Virus record (IMG/VR): IMGVR_UViG_2693429700_000003
Span: 1 to 13,710 of that record
DNA from: a virus
Lineage: Duplodnaviria > Heunggongvirae > Uroviricota > Caudoviricetes
Reading direction: 5' to 3' (one strand)
Length of the DNA: 13,710 nt
A program made the position numbers and the translations under genes. A model generated the notes under the pieces. That model saw only the letters and a program-made list of their open reading frames with translations, had not been told where the DNA came from and ran no database searches. Every line of letters begins with the position of its first letter. Position 1 is the stretch's first letter. This document shows, piece after piece, positions 1 through 13,710 of the stretch.

Positions 1-357
1 AACCATGACAGCGTTCTGTACTTCAGGGGCCAGCTTGTCAAAAGTGACGTTCATCGGATCTGATTCAGTCTCAACCGGGACAAAGGAAGCAGAGTCCTCA
101 TCCCAGCGGTTTTCCTGCATATATTCAGCATCCCAGGAATCGAGGGCAGGGCGGGGTATACCGGGTTTATCCTCGCAAACAAGAAATTTATAAGCGCAGT
201 CCTGAGCAGCCGGATATTGCTCCAGGAATTGCCAGGTAAATTTGGCACGGGCGCGGCGTTCGTCACCGGCTTCAATGGCAGTGGCTACAGCAATTGCACC
301 TTCTTCCTTTATTGCCTGTTCGTCCGGAATGGCGGCGCAAATAAAGACTTTACTCAT
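1..357 (-). CDS. Conserved prophage protein, N-terminal 119 codons only (gene runs off the left edge); occupies the ydfE position downstream of ydfD in Qin-type dicB operons
   Basis: ATG at 357-355 (minus) with GAGG 8 nt upstream; my manual translation MSKVFICAAIPDEQAIKEEGAIAVATAIEAGDERRARAKF... stays open to position 1; absent from the ORF track because there is no stop inside the window. Confidence 0.6.
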   Translation of the reverse strand, partial: MSKVFICAAIPDEQAIKEEGAIAVATAIEAGDERRARAKFTWQFLEQYPAAQDCAYKFLVCEDKPGIPRPALDSWDAEYMQENRWDEDSASFVPVETESDPMNVTFDKLAPEVQNAVMV

Positions 358-449
358 TTTGTTTTACCTCATTACAGATTTAAGGGTGAACAAATCCCTG
401 CCATTGCTGGCATATAAGAATGAAACCGGATATTTATTACGGAACTGTT

Positions 450-641
450 TTAAAGACCTGCCGGGATTTCGTTATTATCCTGGTGAATAACTTTATCGAC
501 CGGGTAACAGTTACCGGGAATTTTCTGTTCGGTTGCTGCAGTCACACACTCCTGCATTGTCCTGTGAACACTGACTGCAATATCAACTGGCTCTCCGGAA
601 ACAAGAAAAACTGTCAGAACAAGTGCAAATGCTGTATTCAT
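450..641 (-). CDS. Small membrane protein, 63 aa, YdfD-like (N-terminal hydrophobic helix MNTAFALVLTVFLVSG)
   Basis: Internal ATG of track ORF 450..695; AAAGGA 8 nt upstream; start overlaps the stop of the upstream gene (ATGA at 641-638), indicating translational coupling; size and position match ydfD of Qin. Confidence 0.65.
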   Translation of the reverse strand: MNTAFALVLTVFLVSGEPVDIAVSVHRTMQECVTAATEQKIPGNCYPVDKVIHQDNNEIPAGL

Positions 642-826
642 TGTGCACATCCTTTTTGTATCGGACGTAAACGGGCCAGCATTGAAAGAATGCATATTTT
701 ATTTAATAACTCCCGTTCGTGTTTTCTCTTGTTAATGGCATCTTCAGTAAATACAGGGTTACTGATAGTGACACCAATTTCAAAACAACCTTCAGACGTA
801 TTAACGTTTGGTAATAACGTTTCCAT
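638..826 (-). CDS. dicB: DicB-type cell-division inhibitor, 62 aa
   Basis: Internal ATG (826) of track ORF 638..931 with GAGGA 9 nt upstream; product METLLPNVNTSEGCFEIGVTISNPVFTEDAINKRK... agrees with my recollection of E. coli DicB (62 aa); lies immediately 3' of DicF as in Qin. Confidence 0.7.
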   Translation of the reverse strand: METLLPNVNTSEGCFEIGVTISNPVFTEDAINKRKHERELLNKICILSMLARLRPIQKGCAQ

Positions 827-995
827 TATCGCGTCCTCAACAATGAATTTTGTGATGCGGTGCCTGGTGCCTCCAGGTGACGTTAACCAGTTAACAATTA
901 ACGCCGGATACAGAGAATCCACCCATAACACTGTTTTTGGTTTTAACTGTTCCGCGTGCGCTGAGCCGCATTCACCGCATCACAAAATTCACTTT

Positions 996-1053
996 AAAAA
1001 GGGCGGCAGAGCAGTCACGGAGTAAAACTGATACCGCCAAACGTCACCAGAAA
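996..1053 (-). ncRNA. dicF: DicF small regulatory RNA (antisense regulator of ftsZ mRNA) with its intrinsic terminator hairpin and U-tail
   Basis: Minus-strand sequence TTTCTGGTGACGTTTGGCGGTATCAGTTTTACTCCGTGACTGCTCTGCCGCCCTTTTT matches my recollection of DicF essentially base for base; GGCGG...CCGCC stem followed by a T-run. Confidence 0.85.
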
Positions 1054-1384
1054 ATTGATAACAGAGGGCGTTGCAGCGGGGTTGTCGCTTAAGCGTATGG
1101 TCAACCTGACAACCCGGTGTCCTCAACGGGGAAGGAATAACCCCGCCATACTTACCGCCGCGCCATTTCGCGGAGTGCCACAACCGGAAGCGCACGGTCG
1201 AACTAAATTTAACGACACCGTACAGAGAGACCAATTTCGCCGTGCGCTTTCGCGTTATGCCCTGACTTTTCAGGGACATATCCTTTCAGTAAACTGTCAG
1301 TGCCGGATGTTCACCCGTGTCCGGCGCACGCACTCCACCTGACCCGTGGAGAACTCCTTAATTACCAACCCTCAGGAGGGTGAA

Positions 1385-1663
1385 ATGGATAAAAAGCAAA
1401 TTGAGGCCCTGCAATCTATTATTGAAAAACAAGATGAAGCTATCAGGATTCTTTCATATCGCACTGATATGATACTAAATATGCTTTCTGCATTAACGGC
1501 TGCGCTTGGTGGTACAAAAACAAACGTATACCGCGAAGTTGTTATTCAACAGATAGATAAATTTGAAAAAACCATACCAGGTATTAATGCTCATCTTGCA
1601 GAACAAGAGAAAGACCATGCTCTTATGGCAATTTCTTCAGTAGCTCTCCCGAAAGTTGAGTAG
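1385..1663 (+). CDS. Hypothetical protein, 92 aa, predicted helical/coiled-coil; opposite orientation to the surrounding operon
   Basis: ATG at 1385 preceded by AGGAGGG 5 nt upstream (internal start of track ORF 1346..1663); AT-rich; no competing minus-strand ORF of 60 aa or more across 1280-1622; 3' end overlaps the convergent 137-aa gene by 41 nt. Confidence 0.55.
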   Translation: MDKKQIEALQSIIEKQDEAIRILSYRTDMILNMLSALTAALGGTKTNVYREVVIQQIDKFEKTIPGINAHLAEQEKDHALMAISSVALPKVE

Positions 1664-2036
1664 TTTTAATTGTTGTTTTGAAATAATCACTGCTTTCACA
1701 TTTGAGTGATTTCATGGCAATCCAAATGCGGGCCTCTGTGCCTGCATTTGGTTCCAGTTGCTGTAGACGTTTTGCGTCTTCCAAAAGTAAGGCGATAATG
1801 TGTTTCAGCTTCTCATCATTTGCTTGATTCTTGTTTTCAGGCGAATTCTGTCCGCCGAATAGGCGCTTCTCTTCATACAGACCTATAAAGGCACGACGCA
1901 CGTTACCGGATATAGTATCGATGGTTTCTTTTTCTACGGTACTCAGGTCAAGAGTCGCCAGTTGAGAGCGAACCACATTCGATGCCATTTCCTGGAATGG
2001 TACTGGTAAATCTTTAAATTCCATCGTCAACCTCAT
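1623..2036 (-). CDS. Hypothetical protein, 137 aa (133 aa if started at ATG 2024 with GAGG upstream); unknown function
   Basis: Track ORF; start ATG overlaps the stop of the upstream ydfA-like gene (ATGA at 2038-2034); AT-rich relative to flanks. Confidence 0.65.
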   Translation of the reverse strand: MRLTMEFKDLPVPFQEMASNVVRSQLATLDLSTVEKETIDTISGNVRRAFIGLYEEKRLFGGQNSPENKNQANDEKLKHIIALLLEDAKRLQQLEPNAGTEARIWIAMKSLKCESSDYFKTTIKTTQLSGELLKKLP

Positions 2037-2188
2037 CAGTCAGTGTTTCTGGTTAACCAGCGACGCGCGCCAGCTTCAGTTTTAAACGTTTTGCTTCTGG
2101 TATACGCCATCGCGGTAAACGTGCCGTCCTGGTTGGGAAACACGCCGTACACCAGAGATTCGTTGTTGCCAAGATCGATAGTATCCAT
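2036..2188 (-). CDS. Small protein, 50 aa, YdfA-like first gene of the repressor-controlled leftward operon
   Basis: Internal ATG (2188) of track ORF 2036..2281 with GAGG 5 nt upstream; the track's longer start at 2281 lies inside the predicted promoter/operator and has no RBS; product MDTIDLGNNESLVYGVFPNQDGTFTAMAYTRSKTFKTEAGARRWLTRNTD. Confidence 0.55.
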   Translation of the reverse strand: MDTIDLGNNESLVYGVFPNQDGTFTAMAYTRSKTFKTEAGARRWLTRNTD

Positions 2189-2265
2189 GCTGACCTCATT
2201 TCCCCTTAACGCCAGGGTAGCGGAACTGTTTGCTGAGAACACCGTGCGGTGTCTTGATGGGTGGT

Positions 2266-2320
2266 AATTTAGTTTTCTCATGAAGGTTGGTCAAGCGTTT
2301 TTAATGAGAAAACTCAATAT
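2266..2320 (-). promoter_or_regulatory. Leftward early promoter with repressor operators (dicB-operon promoter equivalent): -35 TTGACC (plus 2289-2294 complement), 17-bp spacer, -10 TAAATT (2266-2271 complement)
   Basis: 14-bp TGAGAAAACTCAAT at 2305-2318 is identical to the operator at 2839-2852 in the repressor/cro intergenic region; inverted partial copy at 2271-2283. Confidence 0.5.
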
Positions 2321-2379
2321 TTAATGCAAAATAAAGCCAATACATTGAAATGTAAGGCTTTAAAATTTGTGAAGGGGGG

Positions 2380-2787
2380 TTACTGATGTTTGTTACGTTT
2401 GCGAGCTTCTAGTAGCTCGGTGAATAGGCGATTAAAATTCTCAACGCGGGCACGGAGTTCGCTGATTTGTGCTTGCTGCTCTGATTTTGGAAGTGCGCGA
2501 TACAATCGCAACATCTCCAACTCATCTTCCGATAAGTCTAAGGCGCTGTTGAGTGCAACTGGTGGATCTGGTGTTTTATCCTCGTCACCAAACAGTATCC
2601 AAGTTGGTGAACATTGCAATACCTCAGCCAGGCGATGCAAATTTTGCCCACGCGGGGCTGTATGGTCGCTTTCCCATAGTGAAATTGATGAGCCAGATAC
2701 GCCAGCGGCTTTGCTTAAATCGTTTTGACTTAAACCAACCTGTTTGCGTCTTTCTCTAATTCGTTGACCTAAAGTTTTCTCGTTCAT
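2380..2787 (-). CDS. dicA: DicA-type HTH (Xre/cI-like) prophage repressor, 135 aa
   Basis: Track ORF; N-terminal HTH (LSQNDLSKAAGVSGSSISLWE); motif VLQCSPTWILFGDEDK matches my recollection of E. coli DicA; divergent from a cro-like gene with operators between them. Confidence 0.8.
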   Translation of the reverse strand: MNEKTLGQRIRERRKQVGLSQNDLSKAAGVSGSSISLWESDHTAPRGQNLHRLAEVLQCSPTWILFGDEDKTPDPPVALNSALDLSEDELEMLRLYRALPKSEQQAQISELRARVENFNRLFTELLEARKRNKHQ

Positions 2788-2864
2788 ATTTAGATATCTT
2801 AATAACCCTTGACTTGAGATTCCTTGAGTGATTACTATTGAGAAAACTCAATTTTGGAGGGGTG
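2788..2864. promoter_or_regulatory. Divergent immunity-switch region: rightward promoter (-35 TTGACT 2809-2814, -10 ATTACT/TACTAT 2831-2838) and operator half-sites TTGAG/CTCAA, including the palindrome TTGAGAAAACTCAA (2839-2852)
   Basis: Direct inspection; the palindrome sits between the -10 and the cro RBS GGAGG (2855-2859). Confidence 0.55.
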
Positions 2865-3092
2865 ATGTTTAAATCAGACGTAATTAATTTTTATGGGACG
2901 AAAGCCAAAGTAGCGAAAGCTGCTGGTGTTGATCCATCTGCTGTTTCTCAATGGGGGGAGCTGGTTCCTGAAGGTCGCGCGATGCGCCTGCAAGAGGCAT
3001 CCGGCGGGGAACTTCAGTACGACCCCAAAGTTTATGACGAATATCGTAAGGCAAAGCGGGCGGGGCGGTTGAACAATGAAAATCACCCCTGA
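2865..3092 (+). CDS. dicC: Cro-like HTH regulator, 75 aa (DicC-type)
   Basis: ATG 2865 with GGAGG 5 nt upstream (track ORF 2838..3092 begins at an upstream TTG); divergent from the repressor; C-terminal PEGRAMRLQEASGGELQYDP fits the DicC/Cro family as I recall it. Confidence 0.7.
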   Translation: MFKSDVINFYGTKAKVAKAAGVDPSAVSQWGELVPEGRAMRLQEASGGELQYDPKVYDEYRKAKRAGRLNNENHP

Positions 3093-3627
3093 ACAGGTTT
3101 GTGAGGCTCTGGATGCCTGGGTGTGCCGACCAGGAATGACACAGGAGCAGGCGACGATATTAATCACGGAAGCATTCTGGGCTCTGAAAGAACGCCCGAA
3201 CATCGATGTTCAACGCGTCACGTTTAATGATGGCGAGGTTGATCAACGGGCGCTGGGCGTTAACCGGGTGAAGATATTCGAACGCTGGAAAGCTATCGAC
3301 ACCAGGGATAAGCGGAAAAAATTCACGGCGCTGATTCCGGCAATTATGGAGGCTATCCGAATTAGTGATTTCAGGTTGTATCGTGAGATCAGTGATGGAA
3401 AAAGCATTACGTACATGATCGCCGGATTAAACAAAGAATATGGCGATGTGGTGGAGTCCGGGCTGCTTTTTGCGGATCCAGCTGTTGTGGAACGTGAGAC
3501 TGACGAGCTTATAGAAAAAGCTATTGCTTTCAAGCATGCGTATCGTCAGCAATATCAATATTACTTTGCAGATAAACAAATGTCTGCCAGGGGTTCGTAT
3601 GAGTATCGATGCACTACGATGGGCTAA
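3076..3627 (+). CDS. Hypothetical early protein, 183 aa, in the CII position (possibly a YdaT-like CII analogue; function unverified)
   Basis: Track ORF; start overlaps the cro-like stop and end overlaps the O-like start, so it is in the rightward early operon. Confidence 0.6.
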   Translation: MKITPEQVCEALDAWVCRPGMTQEQATILITEAFWALKERPNIDVQRVTFNDGEVDQRALGVNRVKIFERWKAIDTRDKRKKFTALIPAIMEAIRISDFRLYREISDGKSITYMIAGLNKEYGDVVESGLLFADPAVVERETDELIEKAIAFKHAYRQQYQYYFADKQMSARGSYEYRCTTMG

Positions 3628-4639
3628 AAAGGTGAAAACCGGCAGTTCATCCAGTAAGTCTGTATTGACCTGGCTTGCTGATATGTGCGGTGCCGATTTG
3701 TGTGCATACCCGTCTGTATCTGCACTGGCAGAAGTAACGGAACTAAACAAAAAGACTGTGCAGGACAGCTTACGACACCTGATGGAGATTGGGTTAATTG
3801 TTGATACCGGTGAGAGAAAAGGCAGAACAAAGCAAATTGTGGTGTACCGACTTATCGGTGTAGAAGAAAGTGTTGCCGAGCCTGAATACACCCAAAAACG
3901 GGAGTCTTTAAAGGTGGGTAAAATTGGCGCTGTTAATAAAAACAGTACCGAAAATGGTTATGTTTCAGCACAAAACAGACCCAAAAACGGAACTCTTAGC
4001 TGCATGGAAAATAACCAAAGACACCCAAATTTTCCATCAAAGACACCCAAAAACGGATCACGGAACCCAAAGGAACCCAAAGATCTAAACCCCACACATA
4101 ACGCACGCGAGAGTGCTCCGACCAGTGAGCAGGAAGTTTTGTCGTTACAGGCAGCACCCCTTGTATTCCTGTATGGCCTGAGCGAACCCATCGGAAAATT
4201 TCCGATGACCGATAGCTGGTATCCGTCACGGGATTTTCGACGACGGGCTGCGTTGTGGGGGATGGCTTTGCCGGAGACAGAATTTACACCTGCTGAACTT
4301 GCCGCCTTCCGGGACTACTGGGCAGCGGAGGGGAAAGTGTTTACGCAGATTCAGTGGGAGCAGAAATTCGCCCGTCACGTAAATCACGTCAGGGCGCAGG
4401 TTAAACCAGTCAGCAAGGGGGTAAACCATGCAGCAGCACCAGGTGGCACCGCATCACGGGCAGTTCAGGAAATTCGGGCAGCACGTGAGCAGTGGGAACG
4501 TGAAAACGGATTTATCAGCGACGGAAACGGTCTGGAAGCTGTGGGAACTCATGGGGGAGGTTTATTCGAACCGCTGGACCCAGAAGAACGGGGCCGCACC
4601 TTCGAAGCTCTGGATTGCACAGATTGGCGCGATGACTGA
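3599..4639 (+). CDS. Replication initiator (lambda O-like role): N-terminal DNA-binding region, iteron-bearing linker, DnaT-like C-terminal segment; 346 aa as an ORF, but the true C-terminus may be earlier
   Basis: ATG 3599 (internal start of track ORF 3524..4639); N-terminal MSIDALRWAKKV...SVLTWLADMCG; origin-like iterons inside the coding region; followed by a P-like gene; the last ~70 codons are low-complexity and overlap the P-like frame. Confidence 0.65.
   Translation: MSIDALRWAKKVKTGSSSSKSVLTWLADMCGADLCAYPSVSALAEVTELNKKTVQDSLRHLMEIGLIVDTGERKGRTKQIVVYRLIGVEESVAEPEYTQKRESLKVGKIGAVNKNSTENGYVSAQNRPKNGTLSCMENNQRHPNFPSKTPKNGSRNPKEPKDLNPTHNARESAPTSEQEVLSLQAAPLVFLYGLSEPIGKFPMTDSWYPSRDFRRRAALWGMALPETEFTPAELAAFRDYWAAEGKVFTQIQWEQKFARHVNHVRAQVKPVSKGVNHAAAPGGTASRAVQEIRAAREQWERENGFISDGNGLEAVGTHGGGLFEPLDPEERGRTFEALDCTDWRDD
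3888..4085. repeat. Iteron cluster / putative phage origin of replication inside the initiator gene
   Basis: Repeated (A)GACACCCAAAAACGG-type units at 3888-3902, 3977-3990, 4018-4030 (variant), 4041-4056, plus two short AACCCAAAG copies at 4064-4082; in lambdoid phages the ori lies within the O linker region. Confidence 0.6.
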
Positions 4640-5093
4640 GCAGCAAATCCGACAGGTCTGCCGCCAGTGCATGGACCGCTGCCGGGCGGGTGAAACATGG
4701 CCTCCGGACCTGGCTGAGTTTGTGGCACTGATTTCGGAAAGCGGAGCCAATCCATTCGGTCTGACGGTGGATGCTGTGATGGAGGAGTACCGCCGCTGGC
4801 GCAATGAGTCCTGGCGATATGACGGAAGTGATAAGTACCCGTGGTCTCAGCCTGTGCTGTATCACATTTGCCTCGAGATGCGTTCAAAGGGGATTGAGCG
4901 CCAGATGACCGAAGGGGAATTAAAACGGCTTGCAGAACGGCAGCTGGCGAAATGGGCAAAGCATGTTAGTAACGGCCTGAGCGTTCCGCCAGTCCGGCGA
5001 CAACTGGCGGCACCCAAACGCCCGTCGGGGCCAACGCCAATTGAGTTGCTGAAACAGGAATATGAACGCCGGAAAGCGGCTGGGTTTGTTTGA
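4428..5093 (+). CDS. Lambda P-like replication protein (helicase loader), 221 aa; alternative starts at 4551 or 4632
   Basis: Track ORF; GGGGG 7 nt upstream of ATG 4428; by-eye similarity to lambda P (YPWSQPVLYHICLEMR vs YPWKSNAHYWLVTNLY; ELKRLAERQL vs AELRRKAADEL); no Walker A motif, so not DnaC-like. Confidence 0.65.
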   Translation: MQQHQVAPHHGQFRKFGQHVSSGNVKTDLSATETVWKLWELMGEVYSNRWTQKNGAAPSKLWIAQIGAMTEQQIRQVCRQCMDRCRAGETWPPDLAEFVALISESGANPFGLTVDAVMEEYRRWRNESWRYDGSDKYPWSQPVLYHICLEMRSKGIERQMTEGELKRLAERQLAKWAKHVSNGLSVPPVRRQLAAPKRPSGPTPIELLKQEYERRKAAGFV

Positions 5094-5125
5094 GTTGAGA
5101 AGTAATTTTTACCGGGAGGAAATTT

Positions 5126-5887
5126 ATGGAGACTGTTTTTGACGCACTGAAAGCGATGGGAAAAGCCACGTCGGTAGAACTGGCTGCGCGACTTGATATC
5201 AGTCGTGAAGAAGTGCTGAACGAACTATGGGAACTGAAAAAGGCTGGTTTCGTTGATAAAAGCGCGTACACCTGGCGTGTGGCTTATAACAACGTTCAGC
5301 GGGAACAGCCAGCGTCGGCAGAACTGTCGGAAGAAACCACCACGGCAACAGTCGCTAAAATTTCGGAGAGCGATTTAACTGCGACGATTGAACAACGTGG
5401 CCCACAAACGGCGGATGAACTGGCTACGTTTTTCGGCATCACATCACGCAAAGTGGCTTCAACGCTGGCAATGGCAATCAGTAAAGGTCGTCTGATTCGC
5501 GTTAATCAGAACGGTAAATTTCGTTACTGCATGCCGGGCGATAATTTACCAGCAGAGCCGAAAGCTGCATCGGTAGCGGAAACTGATGGTAAAGCCTTTC
5601 CTCAGCCAGCCGGTGTTGCGTTACCAGTACAGGAAGCTGCAACACAGGAAGATATTAAAACAGAAACTGTGGCGGACATTGTGCAGTCGTTGCCATCGTT
5701 TACCGAAACGCAAGCAGATGAGCTGATTTTTCCGTCCCTGCGCAGGGCAAACCTGGCGCTGCGCAGGGCGAAAAGTGATGTTCAGAAGTGGGAGCGAGTC
5801 TGCGCCGCGCTGCGGGAGCTGAACAAGCACCGGGATATTGTTCGACAGATTACTGATTCTTCCCGCCGTGTTGTATCGGAAAAGTGA
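5126..5887 (+). CDS. Hypothetical protein, 253 aa, with winged-helix-like segments at the N-terminus and mid-protein
   Basis: Track ORF; GGGAGG 7 nt upstream of ATG. Confidence 0.7.
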
Positions 5888-5902
5888 TTGCCGGAGGCGC
5901 TT

Positions 5903-6325
5903 ATGGCAAAAGTATTTACACAAGAAGAGCGGGAAAAAATTAAAGGGCAGGTTGTTGAACTAGTACGCCGGAGTGGGCGCGAGATGTTACGGCAACTGGA
6001 AGCCAAGACAGGTGCGACAAGATATCTGATGAGCGTTCTCGCCAGAGAGCTGGTTGCCAGTGGCGATGTATACAACTCTGGTTACGGGTTATTCCCGTCT
6101 GAACAGGCTCGTAAGGACTGGCAAAATGCCCGCAAAAAACTATCTAGGGCAAAGGTGAAGAAACCATCTGTGGTTGATCCGGATCTTATCTGGTCATTAC
6201 CAGACGGAGAAATACGCCGCTACGACAGGCGTCTGAACATAATCTGTAGCGAGTGCCGGAAGAGCGAAGCTATGCAGCGTGTACTGGCTTTCTATCAGGG
6301 TAATTTTCAGAAGGTGCTGTTGTGA
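5903..6325 (+). CDS. Hypothetical protein, 141 aa
   Basis: ATG 5903 with GGAGG 5 nt upstream (track ORF 5888..6325 begins at an upstream TTG). Confidence 0.65.
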   Translation: MAKVFTQEEREKIKGQVVELVRRSGREMLRQLEAKTGATRYLMSVLARELVASGDVYNSGYGLFPSEQARKDWQNARKKLSRAKVKKPSVVDPDLIWSLPDGEIRRYDRRLNIICSECRKSEAMQRVLAFYQGNFQKVLL

Positions 6326-6430
6326 GCCAAATTAACAATCGGAACTTCGTGAAGAGAAAGCATAATCCAAATCTGAATAATTAAGTTCAGCACTGTAAAT
6401 AAAATTTAATCCTTAACTGGAGGTATATTT

Positions 6431-6643
6431 ATGTTAAATACACAGAAAGCCATTAATGCGGAAAAATATAACGAGTGGGCAAGAAAATTCTCTGAGCAGA
6501 TTTTTAAAATTACTGGCGATGAGAATGTGGCAAAAAATGAATTAGAACCGTGGACACCTGAAGGAAACGCACCAAATTATTGCTGGTGGGAGGTTGATCC
6601 GGTTGATGCTGCAAATGAAGCCATGAGTTACCACAACGATTAA
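6431..6643 (+). CDS. Hypothetical small protein, 70 aa, in an AT-rich moron
   Basis: Track ORF; TGGAGG 7 nt upstream of ATG; marked drop in GC relative to flanks. Confidence 0.6.
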   Translation: MLNTQKAINAEKYNEWARKFSEQIFKITGDENVAKNELEPWTPEGNAPNYCWWEVDPVDAANEAMSYHND

Positions 6644-6675
6644 TGTCGGGAGGCCGCCCGAAAGGGCGGTAAGAA

Positions 6676-6894
6676 ATGACTACATTATTCAGAAAAGAAT
6701 ATCCGCAAAAAAGTAGGGCGACAGAATTTTTGTTTCTCATTCTGTTTATCGTATTGATGATACCGATATCCCCTCTAATTTTTGTCTGGGCAATCGGGAA
6801 AATAATTGAGCCAGTTACTGAATTGTATACCGACGTTGTATGGGCGTCGTTCAACACACTGCACAATAAAATTAATCCGTATAAGGAAAACTGA
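6676..6894 (+). CDS. Small membrane protein, 72 aa (hydrophobic core FLFLILFIVLMIPISPLIFVWAIG)
   Basis: Track ORF; follows a GC-rich hairpin (6652-6670); stop lies 1 nt before the next ATG. Confidence 0.55.
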   Translation: MTTLFRKEYPQKSRATEFLFLILFIVLMIPISPLIFVWAIGKIIEPVTELYTDVVWASFNTLHNKINPYKEN

Positions 6895-6895
6895 T

Positions 6896-7159
6896 ATGGC
6901 AACTTTGACAAAAAAAGAACGGGCATGGTTAAACGAATTACAGGAAGTTCTTGATCGCTGTCCATCACCGAAAAAAATTGGCTTTTACACCATTGGCGAT
7001 AAAAGCATTTACCTGTATGACCTACGCCGCATGGATGAAATCATGGAGGCTCTTGATAATCGTTCGTCGATGGATTGGTGTGTTGCTGTTCATGATATGA
7101 ATGCAGGGTTTGATGAAAAGATTTTGTTCCCCTCATCAGTTGAAAGCACTGCGGGTTAA
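6896..7159 (+). CDS. Hypothetical protein, 87 aa
   Basis: ATG 6896 with AAGGAAAA upstream (internal start of track ORF 6806..7159). Confidence 0.6.
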   Translation: MATLTKKERAWLNELQEVLDRCPSPKKIGFYTIGDKSIYLYDLRRMDEIMEALDNRSSMDWCVAVHDMNAGFDEKILFPSSVESTAG

Positions 7160-7169
7160 GGAGTAACAC

Positions 7170-8039
7170 ATGACCACTATTACCAAAGAACGTATTGAAT
7201 TGTTCATTAAAAATCCGGTTGAAAACGGGCTTACCCGTGGTGAACAAATGGAACTGGCACGGATTGCGCTGGCATCGCTGGAAGCAGAGCCGGTGGCAAA
7301 GATTATAGCTCATTACCCATTAGGGGTTGACGTAGGCAAACAAAAATTCGTACAGGCCATTAGAGAGCTTCCTGACTTTGGCGGATATCTATTTGCCGCC
7401 CCTCCAGCGCCGATAGTGCCGGAAGAAATGTATTGGCAGGATGCGCCAGTTGAAGGCAGCAGCAAAGCGGCTGCATACGCTACAGGCTGGAACGATTGCC
7501 GCGAAGCCATGCTTCAGTCCGGAAACTTTCGGGAAAATAAAGATTCGTCAACCAATAATTTTCGGAAAATCCCGGAAGCGTCAACCAGCTCTCCGGTAAC
7601 TCCGGCTCTTCTGCCTGGTGGTTTCACCATTGAGGAGGCGAAGGAATTACATGAAGACCTGGTACGCAGCCACATAAGCAAGGCCTTAAGTGGCGAAAAG
7701 ATGAAAAAGAAAGATCGCGATGCTGATTTGCGCTGGATTCATGGCGTTATAGTTCAGGCAGCGTGGTTTGTAAAAGCATCACTGGAGCAGAATGCACTAT
7801 CGGGCAACTATCCGGTAACTCCGGATAGTTGGATAAGCTGTAGTGAGCGAATGCCGGATACCAAAACAGCCGTTCTTGTTGCCGTGGAGTTTGACAGGAA
7901 AGGTGACTGGCGAATGAAATGGGCGACTTACATCCCGGGTCATCCTGACGCTAATGATGGGTGGATAATTCCTGGTGCGTCGTGGAAACCGTCACACTGG
8001 ATGCCGCTACCAGAACCGCCGCAGGAGGTGCGCCAATGA
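7170..8039 (+). CDS. Prophage protein, 289 aa, with DUF551-like C-terminal domain (...SHWMPLPEPP)
   Basis: Track ORF; AAGGAG upstream; the C-terminal tryptophan/proline-rich signature is typical of DUF551 proteins of enterobacterial prophages. Confidence 0.7.
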   Translation: MTTITKERIELFIKNPVENGLTRGEQMELARIALASLEAEPVAKIIAHYPLGVDVGKQKFVQAIRELPDFGGYLFAAPPAPIVPEEMYWQDAPVEGSSKAAAYATGWNDCREAMLQSGNFRENKDSSTNNFRKIPEASTSSPVTPALLPGGFTIEEAKELHEDLVRSHISKALSGEKMKKKDRDADLRWIHGVIVQAAWFVKASLEQNALSGNYPVTPDSWISCSERMPDTKTAVLVAVEFDRKGDWRMKWATYIPGHPDANDGWIIPGASWKPSHWMPLPEPPQEVRQ

Positions 8040-8119
8040 ACTGGCCTGAAGCATTTGCAATTACAGGCGTTGCTATGGCTATCGCTTTTTTAGTATATGT
8101 TATTTGTCGGTGGGGGTAA
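8036..8119 (+). CDS. Tiny hydrophobic peptide, 27 aa (MNWPEAFAITGVAMAIAFLVYVICRWG)
   Basis: Not in the ORF track (too short); GGAGG 8 nt upstream; ATG overlaps the stop of the DUF551 gene (ATGA at 8036-8039); predicted single transmembrane helix. Confidence 0.45.
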   Translation: MNWPEAFAITGVAMAIAFLVYVICRWG

Positions 8120-8154
8120 AAACGTTCGCCGGGATTAACACCAAAGGAGGGAAT

Positions 8155-8259
8155 ATGTCGGATGATATATCACTGGCAATGGAAGGTGCGCTGGCTGTTG
8201 TTGCTGTTGTGGGCGTTTACTGCCTGGTTGTGTTTTTGATGGATCGACTAGGGAACTGA
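8155..8259 (+). CDS. Tiny hydrophobic peptide, 34 aa (MSDDISLAMEGALAVVAVVGVYCLVVFLMDRLGN)
   Basis: Not in the ORF track; AAAGGAGGG 4 nt upstream of ATG; predicted single transmembrane helix. Confidence 0.45.
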   Translation: MSDDISLAMEGALAVVAVVGVYCLVVFLMDRLGN

Positions 8260-8267
8260 ATTCATTA

Positions 8268-8289
8268 CGATATGGGAATTCCCATATCG
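8268..8289. repeat. Perfect 22-bp palindrome CGATATGGGAATTCCCATATCG (candidate protein-binding site or RNA hairpin)
   Basis: Direct inspection; centred on GAATTC; immediately downstream of the second tiny peptide ORF. Confidence 0.6.
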
Positions 8290-8448
8290 GGTAAAAACGG
8301 TTTGCGGGAAAAGGAGAGTTAAGTAGAATTGCTGCGGGTGCTTGAGGCTATCTGTCTCAGGCATGAACACCAAAAGGCAGATAGAGAAAAGCCCCAGTTA
8401 ACATTACGCGTCCGGCAAGACGCTTAACATTAATCTGAGGCCATATCT

Positions 8449-8655
8449 ATGCTCTACACACGTAGGTTAGCCTCTTACGGACCGAAAGGTCAAGGAGAAG
8501 CAGGCTATGAAGCAGCAAAAGGCGATGTTAATCGCCCTGATCGTCATCTGTTTAACCGTCATAGTGACGGCACTGGTAACGAGGAAAGACCTCTGCGAGG
8601 TACGAATCCGAACCGGCCAGACGGAGGTCGCTGTCTTCACAGCTTACGAACCTGA
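8449..8655 (+). CDS. mok-like overlapping reading frame (translation-coupling frame of a hok locus), 68 aa
   Basis: Track ORF; starts 58 nt upstream of hok and overlaps it out of frame, as mok does in hok/sok loci. Confidence 0.5.
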   Translation: MLYTRRLASYGPKGQGEAGYEAAKGDVNRPDRHLFNRHSDGTGNEERPLRGTNPNRPDGGRCLHSLRT

Positions 8656-8662
8656 GGAGTAA
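8507..8662 (+). CDS. hokD: Hok-family type I toxin (HokD/RelF-like), 51 aa
   Basis: Manual translation MKQQKAMLIALIVICLTVIVTALVTRKDLCEVRIRTGQTEVAVFTAYEPEE matches the Hok/Gef family as I recall it (hydrophobic helix then TRKxLCEVR motif); not in the ORF track (too short). Confidence 0.85.
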   Translation: MKQQKAMLIALIVICLTVIVTALVTRKDLCEVRIRTGQTEVAVFTAYEPEE

Positions 8663-8731
8663 GAGACCCGGCGAGGGAGAAATCCCTCGCCACCTCTGAT
8701 GTGGCAGGCATTCTCAACGCACCCGCACTTA

Positions 8732-8760
8732 ACCCGCTTCGGCGGGTTTTTGTTTTTATT
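8732..8760 (+). terminator. Rho-independent terminator at the 3' end of the hok mRNA
   Basis: ACCCGC-TTCG-GCGGGT hairpin followed by TTTTTGTTTTTATTTT. Confidence 0.75.
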
Positions 8761-8878
8761 TTCAACGCATTTGAAGTTCTGGACGGTGCCGGAATAGAAT
8801 CAAAAATACTTAAGTAGCGCGCAGGGATAAGAGGGATGGTCCCTTAAAGGGGAGAGCTAATTATCCGGAAGGATTCTG

Positions 8879-9130
8879 ATGATGAACATCGAAGAACTGC
8901 GTAAAATTTTTTGTGAAGATGGCCTCTATGCTGTGTGCGTTGAAAATGGAAATATTGTTAGTCATTACCGCATTGTGTGTTTGCAAAAAAATGGGGCTGC
9001 GTTAATTAATTTTGTGGATGCCCGAGTGACGGACGGATTTATCTTGCGCGACGGTGAGTTTGTCACTTCATTACAGGTATTGAAAGAGATCGGAATAAAA
9101 GCTGGCTTTTCTGCTTTTTCAGAAGAATAA
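8879..9130 (+). CDS. Hypothetical protein, 83 aa (same size and position as rem next to hokD in Qin; sequence identity unverified)
   Basis: Track ORF; GGAAGGA upstream. Confidence 0.6.
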   Translation: MMNIEELRKIFCEDGLYAVCVENGNIVSHYRIVCLQKNGAALINFVDARVTDGFILRDGEFVTSLQVLKEIGIKAGFSAFSEE

Positions 9131-9196
9131 ACTCATCTACAATCTTGCGCGGGGCTGAACTCCCGCTGAGTAACACCGTGCCACCGGAGAAAACCG

Positions 9197-9475
9197 ATGG
9201 CACGCAACGCAAAATATTACAAACATGATAATTCGACCGTTCTTGCCCACACGCACGAGCGGTATTCTCACGCATTTAAGTCAGACTGGTACCAGCATCC
9301 CCCATGCACTGAAGAACAGGCCGAATGGCTCATTCAGTGTTACCGCAGGCGCGGATGCGAGGTTAAAAAAGCCCTTAGCCTCGACTACCGTCACTGGATA
9401 ATCTCCGTCAGGCTGCCTTACTCCGAACGCCCACCGCGTCCGTCCCGCACATTCCAGCAACGCATCTGGAGGTAA
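9197..9475 (+). CDS. Hypothetical protein, 92 aa
   Basis: Track ORF; GGAGAAAA upstream of ATG. Confidence 0.55.
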   Translation: MARNAKYYKHDNSTVLAHTHERYSHAFKSDWYQHPPCTEEQAEWLIQCYRRRGCEVKKALSLDYRHWIISVRLPYSERPPRPSRTFQQRIWR

Positions 9476-9476
9476 C

Positions 9477-10535
9477 GTGCGGGTATTACTTCGACCTGTT
9501 CTGGTACCGGAACTCGGGCTGGTGATCGTTAAGCCGGGCCGTGAATCCATGCCGGTATTCCACAATACCCGGGTACTGGTGGAGCCGGAACCGAAAAGCA
9601 TGCGTAATCTGCCGTCCGGGGTCGTTCCTGCCGTTCGCCAGCCGCTGGCGGAGGATAAATCATTACTGCCATTTTTCAGCGACGAACGAGTGATTCGTGC
9701 TGCTGGTGGCGCTGGCGCACTGTCTGACTGGCTCCTGCGTCATGTCAAATCCTGCCAGTGGCCTCATGGTGACTACCATCACAGTGAAACCGTCATACAT
9801 CGTTATGGTACCGGCGCAATGGTGTTGTGCTGGCACTGCGACAACCAGCTGCGCGACCAGACCTCCGAATCACTCGGGCAACTTGCTCACCAAAACCTGT
9901 CTGCATGGATGATTGACGTCATACGCCATGCAATGAATGGCTCGCAGGAACGGGAATTATCGCTGGCTGAATTATCCTGGTGGGCGGTCCGCAATCAGGT
10001 GGCGGACGCGCTACCGGAAGCGGTATTACGTCGTTCGCTGGGGTTGCGTGCGGAAAAAATCCGCTCAATGTACCGTGAAAGCGACATCGTACCGGGAGAG
10101 CAGACCGCCACCAGCATACTGAAGCAGCGCACAAAAAATATTGCTCCGTTGCCTCACGCCCACCAGCAACAGAATCCACCACAGGAAAAGACGGTGGTCA
10201 GCATTGCCGTTGATCCGGAGTCACCGGCTCAGTATCTCCAGCGCCAGAAACCACAACGGGAAGATATGCCTGTATACACGCGTTGGGTAAAAACGCAGAA
10301 ATGCATGACGTGTGGCAATCAGGCAGATGATCCGCATCACATCATTGGTCATGGACTGGGAGGGATGGGAACAAAGGCTGATGATTTGTTTGTTATTCCG
10401 CTGTGCCGTAAATGCCATAGCGAACTACACGCCGGGGTAAAAGATTTTGAAGAAAAACACGGCAGCCAGCTGTTGTTGCTGATTCGTTTTTTAATGCACG
10501 CGAGAAATTCGGGTGTCCTGAAGTGGAAAGCATGA
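9477..10535 (+). CDS. DUF968-like prophage protein (YdfU-like), 352 aa, with C-terminal HNH/His-Me-finger-like motif
   Basis: Track ORF, GTG start with GGAGG 7 nt upstream; C-terminal CMTCGNQADDPHHIIGHGLGG...PLCRKCHSELH. Confidence 0.7.
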   Translation: MRVLLRPVLVPELGLVIVKPGRESMPVFHNTRVLVEPEPKSMRNLPSGVVPAVRQPLAEDKSLLPFFSDERVIRAAGGAGALSDWLLRHVKSCQWPHGDYHHSETVIHRYGTGAMVLCWHCDNQLRDQTSESLGQLAHQNLSAWMIDVIRHAMNGSQERELSLAELSWWAVRNQVADALPEAVLRRSLGLRAEKIRSMYRESDIVPGEQTATSILKQRTKNIAPLPHAHQQQNPPQEKTVVSIAVDPESPAQYLQRQKPQREDMPVYTRWVKTQKCMTCGNQADDPHHIIGHGLGGMGTKADDLFVIPLCRKCHSELHAGVKDFEEKHGSQLLLLIRFLMHARNSGVLKWKA

Positions 10536-10901
10536 ATGACTGAACGCATAGAATTTGTTTTGCCTTACCCGCCAACGGTGAACACTTACTGGCGACGTCG
10601 TGGCAGCACATATTTTGTATCAAAAGCCGGTGAGCGTTATCGCCGTGATGTGGCGCTTATTGTTCGCCAGCAGCGGCTGAAATTAAACCTGTCCGGAAGG
10701 CTGGCGATAAAGATTATTGCAGAGCCACCGGATAAGCGTCGTCGTGACCTGGACAATATCCTGAAAGCACCACTGGATGCGCTGACGCATGCCGGACTTC
10801 TCATAGACGACGAGCAGTTTGATGAAATCAATATTGTGCGCGGTCAGCTCGTTCCTGGGGGGCGGCTGGGCGTGAAGATTTACAAAATTGAGAGTGAGTG
10901 A
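10536..10901 (+). CDS. rusA: RusA Holliday-junction resolvase, 121 aa
   Basis: Track ORF; motifs PYPPTVNTYWRR and DKRRRDLDNILKAPLDALTHAG match my recollection of E. coli RusA; start overlaps the upstream stop. Confidence 0.85.
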   Translation: MTERIEFVLPYPPTVNTYWRRRGSTYFVSKAGERYRRDVALIVRQQRLKLNLSGRLAIKIIAEPPDKRRRDLDNILKAPLDALTHAGLLIDDEQFDEINIVRGQLVPGGRLGVKIYKIESE

Positions 10902-11452
10902 TCGTAAATATGATATATCCGGAAATTACAGGCAAAAGCGGCGAGCATTTACGTCTAAAAACGCTGGAAGCCGTCTGGATCCAGGGGAAATTACGGATGT
11001 GGGGGCGTTGGTCGTATATAGGTGGTGGCAAACCAGGAAATATGTTCAATCAGTTGCTGACATCCAAAAAACTGACAAAAACCGCGATCAATGAAGCCCT
11101 GCGTAGAATCAGGGAGTCAGGGATTGATAAACCAGAGCTGGAAGCATTCTTGCGAGAGATGATCGCTGGCAGACAGAAGAGCTGGTTGTCTCACTGTACT
11201 GATGCAGAGGCGTTACGCATTGATGGGGTGATAAGTAAAGCGCTTGCACGTTATCCTGGATTGATTGATATCCTGCGGCAAAGGTACGAAGGGCGGGGGA
11301 TGAGTAAACGCAAAATGGCTGAATTGTTGAATGAGGTTCACCCTGAGTGGTGCTATGCAACATGCCGCAATCGTATAGATATGTGGCTGAGAATAGCTGA
11401 GTTTATTCTGTATCCACTGATGCGAGATGCATTTTCTTTTACTGACGCTTAG
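10898..11452 (+). CDS. Late-gene antiterminator Q, 184 aa (alternative ATG at 10910)
   Basis: Track ORF (GTG start overlapping the rusA stop); lies immediately upstream of a promoter-plus-terminator region, the classic Q/PR'/tR' layout; family assignment is by position and size. Confidence 0.6.
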   Translation: MIVNMIYPEITGKSGEHLRLKTLEAVWIQGKLRMWGRWSYIGGGKPGNMFNQLLTSKKLTKTAINEALRRIRESGIDKPELEAFLREMIAGRQKSWLSHCTDAEALRIDGVISKALARYPGLIDILRQRYEGRGMSKRKMAELLNEVHPEWCYATCRNRIDMWLRIAEFILYPLMRDAFSFTDA

Positions 11453-11618
11453 AATCTGGAGGGCGTTTGTTGTTGCACGAAGAGGATTTTTGGCTGGTAG
11501 TAAGGTTTGTGCAGTTTTAGAAAAAAAGCTTGTATTTTTAGCCATAAACTGTTTCAATCCAGCTACGCTTCGCAAAGCTGTACCGCGAGGCGAATAGCAG
11601 ACATGGACACCTGAAAGA
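11453..11618 (+). promoter_or_regulatory. Putative late promoter PR' / Q-utilisation region (exact -35/-10 not resolved)
   Basis: 166-bp non-coding AT-rich segment between Q and a strong intrinsic terminator; candidate TTGNNN hexamers at about 11471 and 11508. Confidence 0.45.
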
Positions 11619-11641
11619 ACCCGCTTTATGCGGGTTTTTTT
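11619..11641 (+). terminator. Rho-independent terminator (tR' equivalent)
   Basis: ACCCGC-TTTAT-GCGGGT hairpin followed by TTTTTTT. Confidence 0.8.
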
Positions 11642-11764
11642 ATGCCTGAAAAACGGCACAGAACATTAAACGCGCTGGTTGTTGTGAATACTGGTCTTTC
11701 AGCTTGCTGGCTTTTTCGACAAGAGGTATTGGTATGTCACGTTAACCGGAAAAGGGAAAAAGGC

Positions 11765-11962
11765 ATGCTAAAACAGCAGGATATGACCGAAACCGCCAGA
11801 GTGGTGTTTAATGAATTAAGCGTCACCGAACCGGCGACCGTCGGGGAAATTGCGCAGAATACTGACCTTTCACGCGAACGCTGCCAGTTAATACTGACTC
11901 AGCTTGTTATGGCGGGTCTGGCAGATTATCAGTTCGGTTGTTACAGACGCCTTCCGCAGTGA
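11765..11962 (+). CDS. Small winged-helix-like DNA-binding protein, 66 aa
   Basis: Internal ATG (11765) of track ORF 11642..11962 with AGGGAAAAAGG upstream; the N-terminal extension from 11642 starts right after the terminator T-run without an RBS and looks non-protein-like. Confidence 0.5.
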   Translation: MLKQQDMTETARVVFNELSVTEPATVGEIAQNTDLSRERCQLILTQLVMAGLADYQFGCYRRLPQ

Positions 11963-12112
11963 AGGCTTTTTAATTTGTGGTAATGGGCGGCTGGTGGGTG
12001 TTAGCGGCACCTGCCAGCCATCTGCTCATGCGTTGGGGTCACAAGCAAACCTCAGGCCCATCTGCTTTGCGCAAAAGCGGTATGAGCCTATCAGAGAAGT
12101 GCTTATTGATCT

Positions 12113-13162
12113 ATGGCTAATACTGTAAAAATATCCAGTTGTGAGTTAATCAACGCTGATTGCCTGGAATTTATCCAGACCTTACCGGAAAATTCTGTCG
12201 ATCTGATAGTCACAGACCCGCCATACTTTAAAGTGAAGCCCGAGGGCTGGGATAACCAGTGGGAGGGCGACGATGATTACCTGAAATGGCTGGACCAGTG
12301 TCTGGCGCAGTTCTGGCGGGTACTGAAGCCTACCGGAAGTCTTTACCTGTTCTGTGGTCATCGCCTGGCATCTGACACCGAAATCATGATGCGTGAGCGC
12401 TTTAATGTGCTGAACCACATTATCTGGGCGAAGCCGTCCGGACGCTGGAACGGGTGCAATAAGGAAAGTCTGCGGGCGTATTTTCCGGCAACAGAGCGCA
12501 TTCTGTTTGCAGAACATTATCAGGGACCGTATCGCCCGAAAGATGATGGCTATGTGGAGCAGGGGCGCGAGCTAAAACAGCACGTCATGGCCCCGCTGAT
12601 TTCTTACTTTCGTGATGCGCGTAAATCACTGGGAATAACGTCAAAACAGATAGCGGAAGCCACCGGAAAGAAAAACATGGCTTCGCACTGGTTTGGTGCC
12701 AGTCAGTGGCAGTTACCGAACGAGGGTGATTACAATAAATTGCAGGCGTTGTTTGCGCGTGTTGCGGCAGAAAAACATCAGCGCGGGGAACTGGAAAAGC
12801 CACACCACCAGCTGGTCAGCACATACAGTGAGCTGAACCGGCAGTATACGGAACTGCTGAGTGAATATAAAAATTTGCGGCGGTATTTCGGTGTGACGGC
12901 GCAGGTTCCGTACACCGATGTCTGGACGCATAAACCGGTGCAGTACTATCCAGGGAAACATCCGTGCGAAAAACCGGCAGAAATGCTGCAGCAGATAATC
13001 AACGCGAGCAGTCGTCCGGGAGACCTGGTTGCAGATTTTTTTATGGGTTCAGGTTCAACGGTAAAAGCGGCGATGGCACTGGGGCGTTGTGCGATTGGTG
13101 TTGAGCTGGAGACCGGACGTTTTGAACAGACAGTCAGGGAAGTTCAGGATTTAATCGTTTGA
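12113..13162 (+). CDS. DNA methyltransferase, beta class (N6-adenine or N4-cytosine), 349 aa; no partner restriction endonuclease in the window
   Basis: Track ORF; motif IV TDPPYF near the N-terminus and motif I FFMGSGST near the C-terminus (beta-class order). Confidence 0.8.
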   Translation: MANTVKISSCELINADCLEFIQTLPENSVDLIVTDPPYFKVKPEGWDNQWEGDDDYLKWLDQCLAQFWRVLKPTGSLYLFCGHRLASDTEIMMRERFNVLNHIIWAKPSGRWNGCNKESLRAYFPATERILFAEHYQGPYRPKDDGYVEQGRELKQHVMAPLISYFRDARKSLGITSKQIAEATGKKNMASHWFGASQWQLPNEGDYNKLQALFARVAAEKHQRGELEKPHHQLVSTYSELNRQYTELLSEYKNLRRYFGVTAQVPYTDVWTHKPVQYYPGKHPCEKPAEMLQQIINASSRPGDLVADFFMGSGSTVKAAMALGRCAIGVELETGRFEQTVREVQDLIV

Positions 13163-13211
13163 AACGGATGAGATTGCAGAATTAATTACGCACCATTATT
13201 ATTCTGCTCCC

Positions 13212-13287
13212 GGCCCTTTAGCTCAGTGGTGAGAGCGAGCGACTCATAATCGCCAGGTCGCTGGTTCAAATCCAGCAAGGGCCACCA
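13212..13287 (+). tRNA. tRNA with CAU anticodon, ileX/ileZ-like (tRNA-Ile2 type read after lysidine modification; Met not excluded)
   Basis: Manual cloverleaf: acceptor GGCCCTT/AAGGGCC, D-arm TAGCTCAGTGGTGAGAGC, anticodon loop CTCATAA, T-loop GGTTCAAATCC, 3' ACCA; close to my recollection of E. coli ileX. Confidence 0.8.
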
Positions 13288-13288
13288 A

Positions 13289-13365
13289 CCGCCACTAGCT
13301 CATCAGGAAAGAGCGTCAACCCTTTAAGTTGAGTGTGCGAGGTTCGAGTCCCCGGTGGCGGTCCA
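13289..13365 (+). tRNA. tRNA of uncertain identity: anticodon loop CCUUUAA (UUU at positions 34-36, Lys-like, but with non-canonical C33)
   Basis: Manual cloverleaf: acceptor CCGCCAC/GTGGCGG (perfect 7 bp), D-stem GCTC/GAGC, anticodon stem TCAAC/GTTGA, T-arm with TTCGAGT loop and one mismatch, 3' TCCA; starts 1 nt after the preceding tRNA. Confidence 0.55.
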
Positions 13366-13367
13366 GT

Positions 13368-13443
<76 letters not shown>

Positions 13444-13446
13444 TAT

Positions 13447-13521
<75 letters not shown>

Positions 13522-13525
13522 GTTA

Positions 13526-13573
13526 GAGTCTTTCAGTCTGCGATGATGGGAAATCCCGGAGTGACTGAAAGAC
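13526..13573 (+). other. Structured element after the tRNA cluster: 11-bp inverted repeat GTCTTTCAGTC / GACTGAAAGAC around a 24-nt loop that itself contains GGGAAATCCC
   Basis: Direct inspection; possible processing site or terminator-like hairpin, but no clean U-tail. Confidence 0.4.
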
Positions 13574-13580
13574 GTTTAGG

Positions 13581-13653: not shown

Positions 13654-13710
13654 GCACTCTGCTTTTATTCCGATTAACTGTGGGTGGTTTGTTGGATAGA
13701 GTGCTTTCCT

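Follow-up and report, generated by a model that had tools for sequence, protein, structure and literature searches.

A split ribosome-binding site (RBS), in which a hairpin in the mRNA brings a distant Shine-Dalgarno (SD) sequence close to its start codon, is known from two genes of phage T4: in gene 38 expression requires a hairpin that cuts the SD-AUG distance from 22 nucleotides (nt) to 5, and in gene 25 a distance of 27 nt is reduced to 11, the intervening structure being required for efficient initiation (review PMC3014915). Here we describe a putative counterpart in a 13,710-nt stretch of tailed-phage DNA (Caudoviricetes; IMG/VR virus record IMGVR_UViG_2693429700_000003, positions 1-13,710), referred to below as the window. 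The element is a GC-rich hairpin abutted by an SD sequence, and lies in the AT-rich interval 6326-6900 between two small open reading frames (ORFs), ORF70 and ORF72. As in T4, SD and AUG are too far apart in linear sequence (22 nt, equal to gene 38) and a hairpin stands between them. The T4 structures are each tied to one gene and were demonstrated by mutagenesis, reporters and probing, whereas the present element is recognised from sequence alone, and occurs in temperate lambdoid prophages, within a conserved leader of about 100 nt, ahead of at least six unrelated genes.

The locus also invites comparison with the units of phage mosaicism. The modular theory of phage evolution, due to Susskind and Botstein, reportedly invokes 'linker' or boundary homologies, and to our knowledge most lambdoid mosaic joints have no conserved linker. 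Like such linkers, the element is a short conserved sequence between exchangeable modules, with breakpoints at it; unlike them, it also has the anatomy of a translation initiation site. Morons, as defined for HK97 and HK022, are extra genes with their own promoter and terminator, placed between genes that are adjacent in relatives. The interval shares with the morons of lambdoid phages a deviant composition and presence/absence polymorphism between relatives, but it lies within an early operon, holds three independent genes and has no promoter or terminator that we could find. The genes of the lambda nin region and the P22 'ea' genes are a closer match, being likewise small, densely packed, highly mosaic and variably present within an early operon, and the interval occupies the nin position, between the P/Ren-like position and RusA-Q; unlike in P22, the ea-type genes here stand in the rightward rather than the leftward operon. 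Neither lambda nor P22 has a named counterpart of ORF70.

We put at roughly 0.6 the probability that the interval is a variable accessory segment of the early operon, whose portable leader carries both a hairpin-bridged RBS and a recombination joint. Its features are:

6373-6423, plus strand: 5' part of the conserved intergenic leader, the same sequence that stands upstream of the hairpin in phage contigs
6431-6643, plus strand: ORF70, 70 amino acids, acidic (pI 4.5), soluble, ATG start, phrog_4659
6648-6653, plus strand: SD sequence GGGAGG, directly adjoining the hairpin on its 5' side and 22 nt before the ORF72 AUG in linear sequence
6654-6669, plus strand: GC-rich hairpin CCGCCC-GAAA-GGGCGG, 6654-6659 pairing with 6664-6669 around a GAAA loop
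6676-6894, plus strand: ORF72, 72 amino acids, DUF4014 (PF13198), phrog_1832
6896-7159, plus strand: ORF87, 87 amino acids, acidic, phrog_1714 (E 1e-50), third small gene of the low-GC stretch

The hairpin string GGCCGCCCGAAAGGGCGG (6652-6669) is present in a single copy in the window, where 0.01 matches would be expected by chance, and its stem, with a pairing probability close to 1 in context, may be extended by an optional seventh pair, G6653.U6670. A first-pass annotation of this DNA had drawn a hairpin without a U-tail at 6652-6670; the GC stem and GAAA loop are as described there, and the stem is indeed followed by TAAGAAATG rather than a U-tract, while the end coordinate falls one base short of 6670. 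The idea of an intrinsic (rho-independent) terminator was rejected, since the stem is present but the tail reads TAAGAAATGAC, and a terminator scan did not report the hairpin. Upstream, GGGAGG has a predicted anti-SD duplex of -10.3 kcal/mol and is mostly unpaired in the ensemble (0.42-0.93); downstream, the spacer UAAGAA between stem and ORF72 offers a duplex of only -1.2 kcal/mol. The locus thus has the anatomy expected of a split RBS, namely a long linear SD-AUG distance (22 nt) with no other SD sequence in the spacer, and a stable hairpin (16 nt, -14.4 kcal/mol) which on folding leaves 5-6 nt, within the 5-11 nt that such a hairpin should restore. In the mRNA, folding of the hairpin would loop out 16 of the 22 nt that separate the AUG from the one usable SD, and so stable a structure may also insulate the start region from any upstream sequence. 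We infer a translational role from this anatomy, and consider that the SD-hairpin unit probably helps ribosomes to start on many unrelated genes.

This last view draws on the spread of the element. We surveyed viral contigs by exact search for the 21-mer GGAGGCCGCCYGAAAGGGCGG, comprising SD and hairpin, and found it in at least 120. In 130 instances among the matches listed, the hairpin is preceded by one of two sequences, a conserved non-coding leader (...CTGAATAATTAAATTYAG...AAATTTAATCCTTAACCGGAGGGATTTCTGCACCCTCAGAACATCA) or the 3' end of ORF70; the first part of that leader is the sequence upstream of ORF70 in the window (6373-6423). GGAGG belonged to the search pattern, and its presence in those 130 instances is therefore by construction; in samples drawn independently of GGAGG, almost all copies have an SD directly against the stem, GGAGA and GGAAG being rare variants. 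Conversely, the 5' part of the leader is always followed by the SD-hairpin in the 129 instances in phage contigs among the matches listed, at +24 nt in 94 of these and at about +225 nt, with ORF70 between, in 35. Because every copy of the leader 5' part is followed by the hairpin at one or other distance, the leader is one unit in two forms, a short non-coding form and a form that carries ORF70. The whole conserved leader is roughly 100 nt long, with the hairpin at its 3' end. Directly behind the hairpin, sampled phage contigs carry at least six unrelated gene families, the start codon following the stem by 6-11 nt; in five of six the spacer has no SD (-1.2 to +2.2 kcal/mol), and in the sixth an 11-nt spacer has a GGAG of its own. 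The same 21-mer occurs once in an unrelated GC-rich contig (L044, 11456-11476), within coding sequence (..QAQEAARKGGNE..) near the start of a 218-amino-acid ORF that follows a 401-amino-acid ORF, apparently capsid-like by reading of its translation; this is probably a chance or coding coincidence.

In the window, the leader begins with a weak AT-rich stem-loop, CTGAATAATTAAGTTCAG (6373-6390), and includes the motif AATCCTTAACTGGAGG (6408-6423), the GGAGG of which (6419-6423) doubles as the SD of ORF70. Searches of Rfam with the window and with the full-length leader returned no match at the element. A short peptide ORF in the short leader was considered and rejected by eye, there being no canonical start codon and a frame that ends differently with each spacer. 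The leader stem-loop is 87% complementary to DUF4014 codons 2-6 over a 15-nt inverted repeat (6372-6386 / 6679-6693), which brackets ORF70 and the hairpin and by rough estimate is about what chance would give in AT-rich DNA. A promoter-like 9/12 match (6551-6580, plus strand, TGGACA-18-AATTAT) lies inside ORF70, upstream of the hairpin; such matches are not above chance in the region.

Natural variation in the hairpin, in samples not conditioned on its exact sequence, comprises C-to-T changes at three 5'-arm positions, each yielding a U.G pair, and G6653A, which turns G.U into A-U; the 3' arm shows no variant in the samples. One-sided changes of this kind are as expected from selection on the plus-strand RNA and suggest it, at only three sites. 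Other observations weigh against a hairpin-bridged RBS in an accessory segment of the early operon. In one lineage (666R9) a C-to-G change leaves a mismatch in the stem, and the downstream gene is retained in three contigs whose 5' arm differs, that of the hairpin being missing. A covariation test, run at low diversity, gave no compensatory double changes and 2/63 cells unpaired, and shuffle controls gave no support for structure; evolutionary support for the hairpin as a structure is weak. The constant short distance to the start codon could simply reflect tight gene packing, and initiation without an SD is possible on spacers that are A-rich and unstructured. The DUF4014 genes of 933W, epsilon15, ES18 and HK225 use ordinary SDs or coupling, without a hairpin; as these divergent homologs lack it, the hairpin is not needed for the DUF4014 gene as such, and we rejected the notion that it is a feature of the DUF4014 family. 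Finally, the best promoter match in the AT-rich leader is about 8/12 by eye, and a weak promoter there is possible.

The hairpin also stands at a joint between mosaic modules. Megablast against phages splits the interval at gene junctions, into 6364-6671 (leader, ORF70 and hairpin), 6680-6907 (DUF4014) and 6892-7200 (ORF87), each found alone in different phages; one module thus ends at 6671 and the next begins at 6680, with the hairpin exactly at the ORF70/DUF4014 joint, and a further breakpoint falls at about 6892-6907, between DUF4014 and ORF87. Phage ArgO145 carries two hairpin copies 1,072 nt apart, of which copy 1 matches the window at 98% in its left flank and 27% in its right, and copy 2 at 24% and 90%, respectively. 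Because each copy matches on one flank only, the arrangement in the window is, at the level of sequence comparison, as expected from exchange between two such copies. In three contigs a breakpoint falls within the hairpin itself, and other relatives show ORF70-hairpin-DUF4014 plus a second hairpin copy 1,064 nt downstream. At the DNA level, an identical element of 20-25 bp before different genes would supply short homology for the joining of modules, and we infer that the hairpin may serve recombination in this way.

These same breakpoints raise the possibility that the hairpin is a conserved DNA linker or scar only, with no function as RNA, which persists because recombinants arise there and spread. 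Its exact placement at module boundaries, the near invariance of its sequence among recently exchanging E. coli prophages, the lack of compensatory covariation and the fact that DUF4014 works without it in other phages are all compatible with such a scar. That explanation leaves unaccounted for a perfect SD abutting the stem, spacers that mostly lack an SD, a narrow 6-11 nt to the start codons, and the confinement of all point changes to the arm where the plus-strand RNA acquires G.U pairs. We regard it as unlikely, though deserving of serious consideration.

A role in mRNA stability or processing, whether as a 3' barrier that keeps exonucleases off the upstream message or as a 5' stem-loop that protects the downstream message once RNase E has cut the A/U-rich flanks, would suit the very stable GC stem with its tetraloop, the A/U-rich flanks and the missing U-tract, and such hairpins are known stabilisers in polycistronic mRNAs. 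Under it, neither an abutting SD nor the distance to the AUG should be constrained, and with the short leader the closest gene on the upstream side stops about 100 nt off, which makes 3' protection less obvious there. We consider this role distinctly improbable.

The first-pass annotation had read the interval differently, as an AT-rich moron in which a small soluble protein is paired with a small membrane protein in one foreign cassette, with exclusion, toxin/immunity or membrane-targeting functions in mind. Taken further, this would make it a horizontally inserted, self-contained two-gene moron, expressed on its own from the prophage. The compositional part of the claim holds: a sliding-window check gave the sharp drop described, 38.3% GC over 6326-6900 against 48.5% for the whole window, so low a value occurring in only 0.5% of all 575-nt windows, with the minimum at 6342, and composition is thus not uniform. 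The trough extends past 6900 (39.2% over 6326-7250), however, and ends at about 7250, taking in ORF87 (41.7% GC), so that a third gene shares the low GC. The proteins are real and conserved, and the genes are variable accessory prophage load; ORF70, ORF72 and ORF87 are all under purifying selection (nonsynonymous to synonymous polymorphism ratio, pN/pS, 0.04-0.39).

What does not hold is the pairing. Of 5,426 complete E. coli genomes, 564 have ORF70 and 1,003 have DUF4014, and in only 228 do the two stand side by side; with the separate megablast modules, this independent assortment argues that ORF70, DUF4014 and ORF87 are, by sequence comparison, separately exchangeable single-gene mosaic modules, and not a self-contained two-gene insert. 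The expected absence from close relatives was likewise seen gene by gene, and not for the pair, as was the deviant composition. In 120 phage contigs, among the matches listed, the gene after ORF70 is DUF4014 in 19, an Ead/Ea22-like gene in 6 and an acidic 60-amino-acid gene in 1, and DUF4014 is preceded by ORF70 in 19 and by the non-coding leader in 13. Where the gene after ORF70 could be read in these sampled contigs (26 copies among the matches listed), it is DUF4014 in 19, which speaks for a pair; the alternative partners, and the occurrence of DUF4014 without ORF70 in epsilon15, ES18, HK225 and 933W, speak against the obligate co-occurrence expected of toxin-antitoxin or toxin-immunity genes, and neither protein matched a toxin, antitoxin, immunity or defence model. 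Nor are the signals of a moron in the defined sense present. A sigma-70 scan of the plus strand over 6326-6430 gave no match of at least 9/12, although a consensus scan could miss a weak or non-sigma-70 promoter, which the AT-rich leader could conceal. Directly downstream there is no factor-independent terminator; the hairpin has no U-tract, and the next sites are at 8210 and 8731, the first convincing one on the plus strand being 8731-8748. Given the real GC trough and the variable presence of both accessory genes, the two-gene moron retains a little credence, and no more than a little.

Two further explanations concern the RNA. The 3' arm, GGGCGGU, might itself be the SD of ORF72, hidden by the hairpin until ribosomes ending ORF70 melt the stem, in a form of repressive translational coupling. 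If unfolded, 3' arm and spacer give -8.1 kcal/mol with the anti-SD at 5-6 nt from the AUG, the ORF70 stop (6641-6643) lies 10 nt before the stem, and the 3' arm shows no variation. Against this, GGCGGU is mismatched to GGAGGU at its centre, the same hairpin is also present after the short leader, with no ORF end close by, and a perfect accessible SD lies just upstream; we think coupling of this kind very unlikely. The weakest proposal is that an N-type antiterminator, or another RNA-binding protein, binds the hairpin as a boxB-like site. There is a resemblance to lambda boxB, a GC stem with a GNRA-like purine loop, but such a role is scarcely credible at a distance of 3.8 kb from the early promoter region, for a hairpin of which two copies can stand among accessory genes within 1.1 kb and which has no match in Rfam; a nut site (boxA plus boxB) was rejected, no boxA-like match being present on the plus strand of the window at up to 1 mismatch.

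A hairpin-bridged RBS in an accessory segment of the early operon, which we prefer, depends also on the genomic setting. The 1-kb stretch around the interval is 100% identical to prophages in E. coli chromosomes, mostly of O26:H11-type Shiga toxin-producing E. coli (STEC), and some part of that stretch is present in 3,119 of the 5,426 complete genomes. Family scans, together with RefSeq annotation of an identical copy, gave the following gene order:

Upstream of the cI-like repressor: DicB/DicF region
2380-2787, minus strand: cI-like repressor
2838-3092, plus strand: Cro
Between Cro and the DnaT-domain initiator, plus strand: YdaT-like protein
3524-4639, plus strand: DnaT-domain initiator
4428-5093, plus strand: lambda-P-like protein
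5126-5887, plus strand: DUF1627
5888-6325, plus strand: DUF977 (PHROG label Ren-like)
7170-8039, plus strand: DUF551 protein, 289 amino acids, the next gene after the interval
3' of the DUF551 gene and before the Q-like antiterminator, plus strand: hok/sok, DUF968 and RusA
10898-11452, plus strand: Q-like antiterminator
12113-13162: DNA methylase
13212-13518, plus strand: four tRNA genes, downstream of the DNA methylase and the Q-like antiterminator

Every gene from Cro to Q is on the plus strand, with the cI-like repressor on the minus strand; the sole promoter-like site rightly placed for a rightward early operon is 2809-2838, and terminator-like sites on the plus strand are a weak one at 8210-8226 and the strong 8731-8748, with none earlier. 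Because of this strand uniformity, the promoter-like site and the late position of the first convincing terminator, we assign the interval to the rightward early operon of a Rac/lambda-like STEC prophage, where it takes the place that the nin region has in lambda. It would then be transcribed in lytic growth by read-through from the early promoter on the Cro side, as a set of independent single-gene modules exchanged by recombination at gene junctions. The DUF551 ORF is intact in the window (7170-8039), and its counterpart in O26:H11 strain FWSEC0001 (L001, 8471-9340) appears in the annotation as partial pseudogene fragments and a short DUF551 gene, so that the region just 3' of the interval is also in flux.

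Other parts of the window carry RNA elements of their own. A complete hok/sok-type type I toxin-antitoxin locus lies within the early operon (8336-8509, plus strand, sok 109.5 bits; ORF 8449-8655), followed by the strong terminator at 8731-8748 and a weak isrK-like match (8671-8752). Beside the dicB-type region, the DicF antisense RNA scores 76.7 bits, above its gathering score, and directly beside it an STnc100-like match falls below the gathering score (37.7 vs 47); the two matches lie at 1001-1052 and 794-1003 on the minus strand. The small RNAs STnc100 and PasD are linked in a 2026 preprint; that work on Pas RNAs deals with other prophage regions, and was rejected as a source for the element described here. 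The order of methylase, Q-like antiterminator and four tRNAs is presumably the typical layout of lambdoid phages of Shiga toxin (Stx) type.

The three proteins were examined individually. ORF70, noticed in the first pass as a 70-amino-acid ORF with a strong RBS, does have one: its GGAGG, 7 nt before the ATG, gives a predicted anti-SD duplex of -10.6 kcal/mol. The homology and structure searches proposed there placed both ORF70 and ORF72 in families, and yielded no fold or PDB match for either. ORF70 matches phrog_4659 (E 3e-51) and nothing in Pfam, PADLOC or NCBIfam; homologs at 70% identity or more are confined to Escherichia/Shigella, and a profile search of 1.84 billion representatives gave three small, remote, true relatives with a common motif, DPVDAANEALSY. 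Very long proteins matching the same profile were rejected as low-complexity artefacts, judging by the one sequence read (P0247). The gene is under purifying selection (pN/pS 0.17-0.33). Its AlphaFold2 model comprises three helices at modest confidence (predicted local distance difference test, pLDDT, 69), for which fold and PDB searches gave no match with E below about 3. Our best guess, held with low confidence, is that ORF70 binds a host protein in the cytoplasm.

ORF72, by profile match, is a full-length member of the DUF4014 family, residues 1-72 aligning to positions 1-72 of PF13198 at 91.8 bits (cut-off 23.2; E 3.7e-26), with a match to phrog_1832 at E 2e-45; DUF4014 is its only match in PADLOC, Pfam and NCBIfam. 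The single hydrophobic helix ascribed to it earlier is there, as one strong segment at about residues 17-41 (Kyte-Doolittle 19-residue maximum 2.96) behind a basic N-terminus, and the charge distribution would imply an N-in, C-out topology. The conserved portion of DUF4014 proteins is the C-terminal helix, ending LHNKINPYKE. AlphaFold2 models ORF72 as a helical hairpin (pLDDT 82), with no match in fold and PDB searches at E below about 3, and pN/pS (0.29-0.39) again indicates purifying selection. We tentatively picture DUF4014, as a best guess of low confidence, as an N-in, C-out inner-membrane protein that is made early in infection and acts on an envelope component. Database labels for the family ('released from the phage upon host infection'; 'O-polysaccharide acetyltransferase inhibitor') are treated as unverified, as literature searches traced no experiment behind them; searches for DUF4014 and for the hairpin sequence found no source.

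Relatives of ORF72 occur in 127 phage records, among them epsilon15 gp46, ES18 gp39 and HK225 gp56 at about 50% identity, where the gene sits among eaD/eaE/eaA-type genes of the leftward early region. In these three phages and 933W alike, the DUF4014 gene of the leftward 'ea' region has neither hairpin nor ORF70, and in 933W it begins at a GTG with an ordinary AAGGAG 6 nt upstream. A scan of genome contigs for DUF4014 found two loci only, in E. coli and Shigella. HNH endonuclease genes directly adjoin DUF4014 in several otherwise different phages (ArgO145, L002, 4105-4470; HK225, L127, 827-1204; g341c gene 24), and free-standing homing endonucleases may target this neighbourhood. A record labelled Actinobacillus phage vB_Apl-pPE4 (PP818812.1, about 11316-12584) contains E. 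coli Rac-type leader and DUF4014 DNA at 89-94% identity, and its Actinobacillus pleuropneumoniae host label is odd given such close identity.

ORF87 is under purifying selection (pN/pS 0.04-0.20), and its module (6892-7200) is found alone in other phages. A 152-amino-acid ORF on the minus strand (6510-6968) was rejected as spurious, having no family match and overlapping two plus-strand genes under purifying selection.

Both genes that flank the hairpin are ordinary, and hundreds of E. coli genomes already carry annotations of their proteins, as hypothetical or DUF4014; the correction that follows from their assortment is that clusters of small genes in prophage early regions are to be read as independently assorting modules, and not as cassettes. 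If the SD-hairpin is a working split RBS, then a mechanism known from two T4 genes would be extended to temperate enterobacterial phages, with one conserved element serving both translation and mosaic recombination before many different genes; this bears on the reshuffling of accessory genes in Stx and other lambdoid prophages, and could offer a natural insulated RBS part for engineering. A bolder and speculative extension, which we consider unlikely as it stands, is that Rac/Stx-type prophages have in the leader of about 100 nt, with its SD-hairpin, a natural and portable 'cassette adaptor', combining a context-insulated, hairpin-bridged RBS with short homology through which phage recombinases swap, duplicate and delete accessory genes. 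If true, this would amount to integrase-free shuffling of gene cassettes.

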